Below, piece by piece: positions 9,043 to 10,076 of a stretch of 10,334 nucleotides of DNA (positions are counted from its first letter, which is position 1; each line of letters begins with the position of its first letter). The notes under the pieces are model-generated. The model had not been told where the DNA came from. It did not search any database and saw only the letters and a program-made list of their open reading frames with translations. The position numbers were made by a program, and so were the translations under genes. The stretch is from the IMG/VR virus record IMGVR_UViG_2681813261_000016. One strand, written 5' to 3'. Origin of the DNA: a virus (Duplodnaviria > Heunggongvirae > Uroviricota > Caudoviricetes).

Positions 9043-9243
9043 ATGATCAAAATCTATCTATTGGCAGTAGCCACAGGCCTTTCAGTGGCTCTCATCTACG
9101 GTTTACTGGTTCCGTCGCTGATTTCTACCAAGAGTGATTTAGCCGTCATGTTTGGAGTTATCGTTGGTTTTGGTGCTCCTGTAATCGGTCTTATTGCTGG
9201 TCGTAAGTTTATCAACTCATTAATCAAAGCAAAGGAGAAATAA
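9043..9243 (+). CDS. Small membrane protein (66 aa, two predicted transmembrane helices, basic C-terminus)
   Basis: Hydrophobic stretches IYLLAVATGLSVALIYGLLVPSLI and LAVMFGVIVGFGAPVIGLIAG separated by a short polar turn; C-terminus KFINSLIKAKEK. RBS AGGAAA (9033-9038) and conserved AAACACATG start context. Confidence 0.6.
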   Translation: MIKIYLLAVATGLSVALIYGLLVPSLISTKSDLAVMFGVIVGFGAPVIGLIAGRKFINSLIKAKEK

Positions 9244-9246
9244 GTA

Positions 9247-9702
9247 ATGAAGAAAGGTTTACTTGCAGTTGCTCTGGCGGCTATTTGCACAATGGGTCTT
9301 ACTGGCTGTGATCGCGTGGAGCCTGGATACGTTGGCATCAAAGTAAACAAATTAGGTGAAGACAAAGGGATTGGTGAAGTGGTTGGCGTTGGTCGCCAAT
9401 GGACAGGTCTTAACACCGAACTTTACGTATTCCCGACCTTCAAACAAATGAAGACCTACGACGAGCCGTTCACATTCCAGATGAGTGACGGTACTGCTAT
9501 TGGTCACAAAATTGGCGTTGCGTATCTGGTTAATCGTGACAAGGTAACGACGGTGTTCCAGACCTATCGCAAAGGCGTAGACGATATCACCGAATCAGAT
9601 CTGCGTCAGAAAATTGCCGACTCTCTAAACCGTTTGGCCAGCCGTATGACCACTGACTCATTTATCGACGGTGGTAAGGCACAATTGCTGGACACGCACT
9701 GA
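9247..9702 (+). CDS. SPFH/band-7 (stomatin/HflC-like) lipoprotein, N-terminal portion, ending at a frameshift
   Basis: Lipoprotein signal peptide with lipobox LTGC (MKKGLLAVALAAICTMGLTGC); following sequence (VEPGYVGIKVNKLGE ... VTTVFQTYRKG) resembles the first half of an SPFH domain. RBS AGGAG at 9233-9237. Terminates at TGA 9700-9702 mid-domain. Confidence 0.6.
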   Translation: MKKGLLAVALAAICTMGLTGCDRVEPGYVGIKVNKLGEDKGIGEVVGVGRQWTGLNTELYVFPTFKQMKTYDEPFTFQMSDGTAIGHKIGVAYLVNRDKVTTVFQTYRKGVDDITESDLRQKIADSLNRLASRMTTDSFIDGGKAQLLDTH

Positions 9703-9719
9703 AAGATATTCAGAAAGAG

Positions 9720-10076
9720 ATGTCTCCGGTTGGTATTGAGGTACTGAGCCTGTCATGGGTTGGAAAGCCTGATTACCCAAAAACCGTCATTGAATCTATT
9801 AACGCCAAAGTAACGGCTAACCAGCGTACTCTGCAACGTCAGCAGGAAGTCGAACAACGTAAAGCTGAGGCGAATATGCTACGTGAACAGGCTAATGGTG
9901 AAGCTGATGCTATCCGTGCTCGTGCGCAAGCAGAAGCAGACGCCATTCGTCTGCGCGGTGAAGCTCTGCGTCAAAACCCGAACGTTATGGAGCTGGAAGC
10001 CATCAATAAATGGAATGGCCAGTTACCGCAGTACATGACTCAAGGGGCTAACACTCCTTTCATTACAGTGAAATAA
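9720..10076 (+). CDS. SPFH/band-7 domain, C-terminal portion (continuation of 9247-9702 in the -1 frame)
   Basis: Sequence VGIEVLSLSWVGKPDYPKTVIESINAKVTANQR followed by an Ala/Glu/Arg-rich helix (EADAIRARAQAEADAIRLRGEAL) matches the second half of SPFH domains. The frame is open from 9678, upstream of the annotated ATG. It has its own possible start (ATG 9720 after AAAGAG). Confidence 0.55.
   Translation: MSPVGIEVLSLSWVGKPDYPKTVIESINAKVTANQRTLQRQQEVEQRKAEANMLREQANGEADAIRARAQAEADAIRLRGEALRQNPNVMELEAINKWNGQLPQYMTQGANTPFITVK

Follow-up and report, generated by a model that had tools for sequence, protein, structure and literature searches.

Scaffold proteins of the SPFH superfamily accompanied by small membrane partners are already known. 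In SPFH-NfeD operons, such as those encoding Escherichia coli QmcA-YbbJ (PDB 8z5g) and Pyrococcus PH1511 with the NfeD protein PH1510, the scaffold gene adjoins the gene of a small membrane partner, and in the structure solved for QmcA-YbbJ the SPFH assembly binds the partner in its interior. HflK/HflC-FtsH complexes (PDB 7vhq, 7wi3, 9cz2) carry the SPFH domain on the periplasmic face, in the order SPFH domain, long coiled coil, C-terminal cap. In Staphylococcus phages of the Kayvirus group, the gene of the small membrane protein MbpV lies immediately upstream of, and overlaps, the phage SPFH gene encoding MbpS (PMC7150955). A pair of this kind, gp19 and gp20, is also encoded by phage N4; no published function was found in the literature for either protein. 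The element analyzed here is a two-gene membrane cassette located at positions 9043–10076 of a 10,334 nucleotide (nt) stretch of DNA, hereafter the window, from the IMG/VR virus record IMGVR_UViG_2681813261_000016 (Caudoviricetes). The cassette encodes a 66 amino acid (aa) protein with two transmembrane helices, followed by an SPFH lipoprotein, and is a broken member of a catalogued phage module, a variant of the scaffold-plus-small-partner theme.

Both proteins have counterparts in N4, encoded in the same order by translationally coupled genes, which overlap by 8 nt in that phage. N4 gp20 shares 62.6% identity over the full length and likewise possesses a lipobox; gp19 is a 68 aa two-helix hairpin which shares the invariant Y, L, P, S, G and P residues of the small protein. 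As in the N4 pair, members of the PHROGs families phrog_1130 and phrog_200 are adjacent and co-oriented, the small gene being the first. The closest relatives of the window are the Escherichia phages CMS-2020a (CP053388), PhiR41_1 and Cyrano, the last a plasmid prophage of E. coli LF82 (PMC9928086). Also close are ~195 complete E. coli plasmids of roughly 100–130 kb, and 179 plasmids of the PLSDB collection. On the strength of these relatives, the source of the window is identified as an SSU5/pHCM2-like E. coli phage-plasmid of ~110 kb. The features of the cassette and of its borders are the following.

8955–8975, plus strand: intrinsic terminator of the recA-like gene, stem GGCGTCC...GGACGCC (9 bp stem, 6 G-C pairs, T-run)
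8985–9013, plus strand: sigma-70-type promoter-like element, TTGAAA, 17 nt spacer, TATTAT (10 of 12 consensus positions)
8991–9010, no strand: operator-like palindrome between the -35 and -10 hexamers (18 of 20 positions of ATAAGTAAGT-ACTTACTTAT)
9043–9243, plus strand: intact gene for the 66 aa inner-membrane protein with two transmembrane helices (open reading frame starting with ATG, phrog_1130, substitution rates, homologue of N4 gp19)
9247–9702, plus strand: 5' part of the SPFH gene, with signal peptide, lipobox L18-T-G-C21 (9298–9309), Asp in position +2 and start of the SPFH domain (open reading frame, Band_7)
9693–9694, plus strand: site of a one-base deletion, AA to A, which breaks the SPFH frame (alignment with relatives)
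9699–10076, plus strand: 3' part of the SPFH gene in the -1 frame, with end of the SPFH domain, long coiled-coil helix and conserved C-terminal KWNGxLP...PF motif (Band_7, Flot)
10095–10121, plus strand: intrinsic terminator closing the cassette, stem GGCGTCC-AGTT-GGACGCC (hairpin plus T-run, 10095–10112), then GTTTTATTCT

The second gene encodes a member of the SPFH/Band 7 superfamily, as the first-pass annotation of the window had proposed. Both parts of the gene are matched by the Pfam Band_7/SPFH profile (PF01145; curated cut-off 23.6 bits), the 5' part at 53.7 bits (E 3.4e-14; profile positions 2–117 of 176), the 3' part at 30.6 bits (E 4.2e-07; profile positions 130–176). The 3' part also matches Flot (E 4.6e-04). 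The intact homologue scores 106.2 bits against Band_7 (E 2.6e-30; positions 2–176 of 176), and in PHROGs the SPFH protein corresponds to phrog_200, 'lipoprotein' (E 3e-108). The labels 'serine protease' and 'transposase', given to some homologues, are unsupported by profile matches. The N-terminus of the protein reads MKKGLLAVALAAICTMGLTG-C21, and includes the lipobox LTGC, followed by Asp22; the pattern searched for was [LVI][ASTVI][GAS]C at the end of an N-terminal signal peptide. The lipobox cysteine is at least 90% conserved over 100 diverse family members, fusions included. In Enterobacteria, Asp in position +2 after this cysteine is a signal for retention in the inner membrane. By these established sorting rules, the enterobacterial SPFH lipoprotein should be retained in the inner membrane and face the periplasm, on the same side as HflK/C.

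The SPFH gene is interrupted in the window. Translation starts at ATG 9247, 3 nt past the stop of the small gene, and is served by the ribosome-binding site AAGGAG at 9232–9237. The frame runs for 151 codons and ends prematurely at TGA 9700–9702, which leaves no uninterrupted SPFH coding sequence. The C-terminal 125 codons (9699–10076) lie in the -1 frame, where the listed open reading frame begins at ATG 9720 (9720–10076). The start 3 nt past the small gene and the assignments as lipoprotein and SPFH protein of the earlier description all stand, but the gene is not a single frame, a one-base deletion having been overlooked. In Cyrano and PhiR41_1 the gene is one open reading frame of 831 nt, coding for 276 aa; the span 9247–10076 measures 830 nt, and alignment with the two phages places the missing A at 9693/9694, where GGACAACGCA is changed to GGACACGCA. 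A programmed -1 frameshift was rejected, as the 9690–9702 region (GGACACGCACTGA) lacks an X-XXY-YYZ slippery heptamer, and the change is treated as a plain deletion.

The break was probed in E. coli plasmids by a 61 nt sequence spanning the site. All 166 plasmids matching the probe at 98.4% keep the extra base, the deletion being found in 0 of 166, and no IMG/VR viral contig was found to carry the deletion allele. An intact SPFH gene of ~275 aa is present in all 86 loci used for the neighbourhood comparison. Once the A is restored, the SPFH protein of the window is 100% identical to that of Cyrano. Because the allele is private to the window and the restored protein is identical to the Cyrano protein, the break is either an isolated, very recent event or a single base-calling error. 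That an assembly or base-calling error accounts for the frameshift, the cassette of the source element being intact and ordinary, is plausible but short of probable. The uniqueness of the allele relative to the plasmid copies and all viral contigs fits an error, as does the fact that the gene is otherwise undamaged. However, the deletion is the sole indel inside coding regions in the alignments of the window to its two closest relatives (~9.4 kb and ~7.2 kb), which indicates that the assembly is not generally error-prone, and the run affected consists of just two A's and is no long homopolymer. The window copy is a probable pseudogene, pending a check of the base call, and should be treated as such in annotation or functional inference until the check is made. 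With its SPFH gene frameshifted, the cassette is probably non-functional in the window. Should the deletion be genuine, the only products would be the hairpin protein and a 151-residue lipoprotein stump devoid of the coiled-coil/oligomerisation helix.

The 66 aa protein features hydrophobic helices at residues ~4–24 and ~34–54 (hydropathy windows starting at residues 1 and 32), separated by the conserved turn LLVPSLISTKSD, and ends with the basic tail RKFINSLIKAKEK, which has a net charge of +4. It agrees with what had been described from the open reading frame. By the positive-inside rule, both termini are predicted to be cytoplasmic (N-in/C-in), the basic tail included, and the turn periplasmic. 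In PHROGs the protein matches phrog_1130, 'membrane protein' (moron/auxiliary category), over its full length (E 7.9e-26), and the ratio of nonsynonymous to synonymous substitution rates (dN/dS) relative to homologues in related genomes is 0.10–0.21. By the full-length match and these ratios, the open reading frame is judged to be a real gene under purifying selection. Residues Y19, L22, P24, S28, G38 and P46 are invariant over six phage lineages. The small protein evolves much faster than its SPFH neighbour, its identity being only ~60% in a comparison that gives 94.5% for the SPFH protein. Synonymous divergence (dS) from Cyrano is 0.64 in the small gene of the window and 0.02 in the SPFH gene, a difference that implies a recombination breakpoint between the two genes and the independent swapping of small-gene alleles.

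The two genes are a conserved unit, as had been supposed. A small two-helix open reading frame is located directly upstream of the SPFH gene in 85 of the 86 loci from phages, plasmids and IMG/VR, the single exception being cut by a contig end, and the genes are separated by 3 nt or overlap by 1, 4 or 20 nt. The pair is found also in the lambdoid phage phiP27, where the small open reading frame is unannotated, and in the P2-like phage P88. A tblastn search of 50,697 phage records with the intact SPFH protein returned 665 records, from temperate and virulent phages; virulent carriers include N4-like phages (Enquatrovirus, Pokkenvirus) and Vequintavirinae (Mydovirus). The distribution suggests that the role of the family is not tied to lysogeny. 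At the turn from one helix to the next, the partner bears the signature P-x-[LM]-[ILV]-S-[AS]-x-[SDN], which reads VPSLISTKSD in the window protein, is present in N4, P88, phiP27, PB119 and Mx1, and has a divergent form in phi1026b. Xanthomonas PB119, Burkholderia phi1026b, Myxococcus Mx1 and Klebsiella KNP2 all have a partner with this motif, or a close variant, ahead of the SPFH lipoprotein. Small membrane proteins of other types are encoded upstream of more distantly related phage SPFH genes, as in Pseudomonas PSA34, Caulobacter Karma, Salmonella PhiSH19 and the mbpV-mbpS pair of Staphylococcus Kayvirus. Divergent partners were located by their position upstream of SPFH genes. A tblastn search with the small protein overlooked those at 23–27% identity, and a word-indexed protein search with the 66 aa protein retrieved close relatives only, almost all of them from contigs of ~110 kb or from shorter fragments.

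Natural fusions link the two proteins further. A HMMER scan of 1.84 billion cluster representatives detected 2,816 clusters at E≤1e-3, and 192 at E≤1e-30. Eighteen of the longer representatives were inspected, and at least 15 are fusions in which hairpin, linker, lipobox signal peptide and SPFH domain follow each other in one frame. The partner motif was recognized in 12 fused representatives, and the lipobox cysteine is kept in all 15. An E. coli-type fusion, P0021, exists beyond these 18 sequences. That the genes have fused in many independent lineages strongly supports a joint function of the two proteins. In P0125, P0135, P0136, P0145 and others, the lipobox is internal and lies behind the two-helix hairpin; a lipoprotein signal in such an internal position would be uncommon. 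Signal peptidase II could cut fusions back into a small membrane protein and a lipoprotein.

Small partner genes are systematically under-annotated in published phage records. Two-helix open reading frames directly upstream of SPFH genes are unannotated in PhiSH19 (L097; 1932–2150, minus strand) and in phiP27 (L005; 2756–2944). The PhiSH19 'superinfection exclusion protein' encoded beside the SPFH gene is a soluble, acidic protein of 106 aa, and was rejected as evidence for exclusion. The real upstream partner is the unannotated two-helix open reading frame, of 72 aa, which separates the 106 aa protein from the SPFH gene.

Two identities suggested earlier for the small protein found no support. 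An NfeD-type partner was rejected, as the NfeD profile (Pfam PF01957) gave nothing at E≤1 against the 66 aa protein, and the two transmembrane helices, which take ~42 residues, leave no room for the soluble OB-fold domain of NfeD. Holin families were rejected as well. Pfam returned no holin family, the sole match being DUF1427 (E 0.55), and no holin family was matched in PHROGs. The observation made in the first-pass annotation is partly confirmed, and its interpretation partly supported.

The pair may nevertheless be viewed as a lysis-timing device, in which the 66 aa protein is a class II holin, a pinholin or an antiholin, and the SPFH lipoprotein sets the time of hole formation. Size, two transmembrane helices, N-in/C-in topology and a charged, basic C-terminal tail are holin-like, but these traits are generic rather than holin-specific. 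In Kayvirus, the endolysin gene lysK is directly followed by the analogous mbpV-mbpS pair, and a resemblance of MbpV to holins has been noted (PMC7150955). Kayvirus MbpV is, however, not homologous to the 66 aa protein, as it has one transmembrane helix and lacks the motif, and phages of Gram-negative hosts carry the pair among early or replication genes rather than with the lysis genes. Cyrano has a complete holin, endolysin, Rz and Rz1 cassette at 26.7–28.2 kb, 30 kb away from the pair (57.5–58.5 kb). Natural fusions to a lipoprotein are also hard to square with a holin free to form holes. A lysis-timing device of this holin type is regarded as quite unlikely.

The fold of the SPFH protein was analyzed in the natural fusion P0021, a 77% identical homologue, modeled as a monomer by AlphaFold2 from a 100-sequence alignment. 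The model (predicted local distance difference test score, pLDDT, 90.4) features three N-terminal helices, corresponding to the hairpin and the signal peptide, a beta-rich SPFH domain with strands at 92–166 and 235–247, and a 65-residue helix at 250–314. Top Foldseek matches in the PDB are prohibitin, HflK/C, erlin, stomatin, flotillin and QmcA-YbbJ (probability 1.00, E 1e-13 to 1e-8), and the major vault protein is also among the matches. In a viral structure library the model resembles Band-7 proteins of phages and giant viruses, and its hairpin portion 61–67 aa proteins of N4-like phages. According to the model and these matches, the protein has the full architecture of cage-forming SPFH proteins, an alpha/beta SPFH fold followed by a long coiled-coil helix.

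Some of the same data bear on FtsH. The periplasmic SPFH lipoprotein might act in the manner of HflK/C, caging or modulating the FtsH protease of the host, and thereby alter the stability of CII-like phage regulators or of host membrane proteins. The predicted periplasmic location of the SPFH domain is shared with HflK/C, whose chains also rank among the best fold matches. HflK is the only match in a PDB sequence search (7vhq; marginal, E 0.007), and the weak NCBIfam matches are to HflC (TIGR01932) and HflK (TIGR01933). In phage lambda, the FtsH inhibitor cIII is carried in the region that corresponds to the phiP27 early region, next to int and xis, in which the phiP27 pair resides. The NCBIfam scores are, however, far under the cut-offs (HflC, 30.2 against 134.4 bits; HflK, 18.7 against 159.4 bits), and prohibitin, erlin and stomatin fit the fold as well as HflK/C. 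Anchoring is through a lipid, whereas HflK/C use an N-terminal transmembrane helix, and the pair is common in strictly virulent phages (N4, Mydovirus), which make no lysogeny decision. Modulation of FtsH is accordingly held to be unlikely.

The cassette has its own promoter-like element and a closing terminator, as stated in the first-pass annotation. The hexamers and the whole spacer of the promoter are almost invariant in relatives whose coding dS exceeds 1.4, whereas the intergenic DNA on either side is variable. All 8 aligned relatives keep the stem of the upstream terminator. The promoter spacer contains the perfect palindrome TAAGTACTTA at 8996–9005, and a second copy of the operator-like palindrome is located in the window at 4205–4224. 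With up to 2 mismatches allowed, the core AGTACTTACTTAT is found 12 times in 50 kb of Cyrano, where 0.63 occurrences would be expected. Most of the sites lie between annotated genes, one of them just upstream of the holin gene; copies in Cyrano (L087) are located at about 3534, 15541, 22455, 26669, 31308, 35619, 38255 and 45275. This ~20 bp palindrome of SSU5-like phage-plasmids looks like a candidate operator of a global regulator of the phage, and its presence in the promoter spacer suggests that the cassette is probably under phage control. The terminators flanking the cassette (8957–8973 and 10095–10112) have the same GGCGTCC...GGACGCC stem. Promoter, genes and terminator may thus have arrived together, as a self-contained unit inserted beside an existing terminator.

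Expression data are available for the Cyrano genes, CYRAN_56 and CYRAN_57. By RNA sequencing, the two are at or near the floor in cells grown in LB medium (log2 about 2.3 and 3.7), and rise up to log2 7.3–7.7 after 6 h in macrophages, whereas no rise is seen in the adjacent RecA-like gene (4.1) or in CYRAN_58 (4.1) (PMC9928086 and its S1 Table). The rise, limited to the pair relative to its neighbours, agrees with the pair being its own transcription unit, which changes independently of neighbouring genes. In the same macrophage sample the genes of the Cyrano major capsid protein and of a tail protein are up to 7.4–7.8 and 8.4, respectively (PMC9928086). Because capsid and tail genes rise too, the signal may reflect partial prophage induction rather than a stress-specific response.

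The ~15- to 40-fold increase of CYRAN_56/57 in macrophages, neighbours being flat, would suit a moron of benefit to the host or a virulence factor, which is expressed in the lysogen under envelope or intracellular stress and aids survival, or acts as a triacylated lipoprotein via Toll-like receptors 1/2 (TLR1/2). PM0222, an HflK/C-like SPFH protein of a Pasteurella multocida prophage and a possible homologue of the phage family, has been reported to be a TLR1/2 agonist borne by outer-membrane vesicles, and its deletion attenuated virulence (PMC9872710). Partial induction of Cyrano could however account for the same sample, the pair is not among the 13 Cyrano morons expressed in LB, and it is conserved in virulent phages, which never form lysogens. 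A benefit to the host is improbable as the function of the pair.

The reading favored here, by a small measure, is that the intact pair makes a periplasm-facing SPFH ring or cage on the inner membrane, partnered with the two-helix protein, during phage development. The first gene would provide a two-helix hairpin in the inner membrane, exposing the short signature turn on the periplasmic side. The second gene, translationally coupled to the first, would provide when intact a 276 aa lipoprotein held in the inner membrane through Asp +2, with SPFH domain, coiled-coil helix and C-terminal cap all in the periplasm. By analogy with every solved SPFH protein of such architecture, the lipoprotein would most likely assemble into a membrane ring or cage like those of HflK/C, prohibitin, erlin, stomatin, flotillin and QmcA, and the hairpin protein would be a resident or nucleating partner of the cage. 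Given the operator-like palindrome in the promoter, the pair is probably switched on with the phage programme rather than constitutively.

Any single biological role assigned to the pair is tentative at best. The best guess is that the cage would insulate or remodel a patch of inner membrane during phage development, and either exclude the DNA of other phages, or protect the envelope and control the timing of lysis. The preference for membrane insulation is weak, and stems from the pair serving virulent as well as temperate phages and from the rapid diversification of the partner. A broader scheme is more doubtful still. In it, a phage-wide cage system of an undescribed kind would confine the two-helix partner, along with the inner membrane around it, under a lipoprotein ring on the periplasmic side, shutting the route of the DNA of competing phages or holding the envelope until programmed lysis; divergence and allele swapping of the partner would denote an arms race, and lipobox fusions would be split by signal peptidase II.

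Several points weigh against the cage and its proposed uses. Formation of a cage is suggested by the fold likeness of a monomer model, not by the prediction of an oligomer. Residues in position +2 are diverse over the family as a whole (Ser 20, Thr 17, Asp 14, Gly 10, others), and retention in the inner membrane is therefore predicted for the enterobacterial branch only. Prophage exclusion systems are normally expressed in the lysogen, and silence of the pair in LB-grown Cyrano lysogens would be unusual for such a system. Models of PADLOC-DB 2.0 gave no match at E≤1 with the small protein, the truncated or the intact SPFH protein, and a catalogued defence system was rejected on these grounds. 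The pair has no sequence link to T4 Imm or Sp. Full-text searches of the literature brought up no functional work on phage SPFH lipoproteins; they returned speculation (PMC13239085, PMC7150955, PMC4936722) and one paper on a Pasteurella prophage and virulence (PMC9872710). Lastly, the frameshift may be a sequencing error, and the window copy would then simply be intact.

The remainder of the window encodes a DNA polymerase III alpha subunit, a UvsY-like protein, a gp32-like single-stranded DNA-binding protein, a 5'-3' exonuclease and an intein-containing recA-like protein. The cassette, described earlier as appended to a replication module, is indeed located after the recA-like gene of this replication/recombination module. 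The recA-like open reading frame (6611–8950, 779 aa) carries an insertion, as would be expected of a recombinase with an intein; RefSeq names the whole gene 'LAGLIDADG family homing endonuclease' in the plasmid closest to the window (L098). The same plasmid has two additional reverse-strand genes (3115–3963) between the polymerase and UvsY-like genes. Their counterpart in Cyrano is the HicA/HicB toxin-antitoxin, absent from the window (about 3600–3761). Similarity to Cyrano, PhiR41_1 and CMS-2020a, three of the four closest phage records, ends at ~10132, just past the terminator, and the 10132–10334 region differs from most relatives. Past the cassette, L003, L008 and L013 have ~800 nt of additional DNA before the next common segment, and L098 has a DUF7238 gene. 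The cassette borders a variable region, as similarity ends at this point and relatives differ beyond it.

The phage branch to which the cassette belongs is widespread, as it marks ~195 complete E. coli plasmids, 665 phage records including N4, and hundreds of strongly matching 50%-identity clusters. N4 and the inducible phage-plasmid Cyrano are two tractable systems for the study of virus-built SPFH structures on the host inner membrane. N4 is a virulent podovirus and has the pair in the left-hand region, just after the genes of the phage RNA polymerase II, whereas the window pair follows the recA-like gene of a temperate phage-plasmid, and its gp20 homologue is frameshifted.

The phage branch is marked by an SPFH protein which is lipid-anchored, predicted to face the periplasm, and coupled or fused to a two-helix partner distinct from NfeD and endowed with its own motif. 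QmcA has a transmembrane helix as its anchor and is exposed to the cytoplasm. Compared to SPFH-NfeD operons, the phage partner is small (66 aa), lacks the NfeD domain, and is encoded upstream. Identity to HflK and HflC is only 16–21%, the equivalog models are missed by more than 100 bits, and the phage protein is single rather than part of a hetero-pair. In phage T4, the superinfection exclusion proteins Imm and Sp, a small inner-membrane protein with two transmembrane helices and a membrane-anchored periplasmic protein, are made during phage development. The layout is similar to that predicted for the pair; in contrast, no sequence relationship is detectable, and Sp is not an SPFH protein. 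Kayvirus pairs share gene order and overlap with the phage branch, but MbpS has a transmembrane anchor in place of the lipobox, MbpV a single transmembrane helix devoid of the motif, and the pair adjoins lysis genes.

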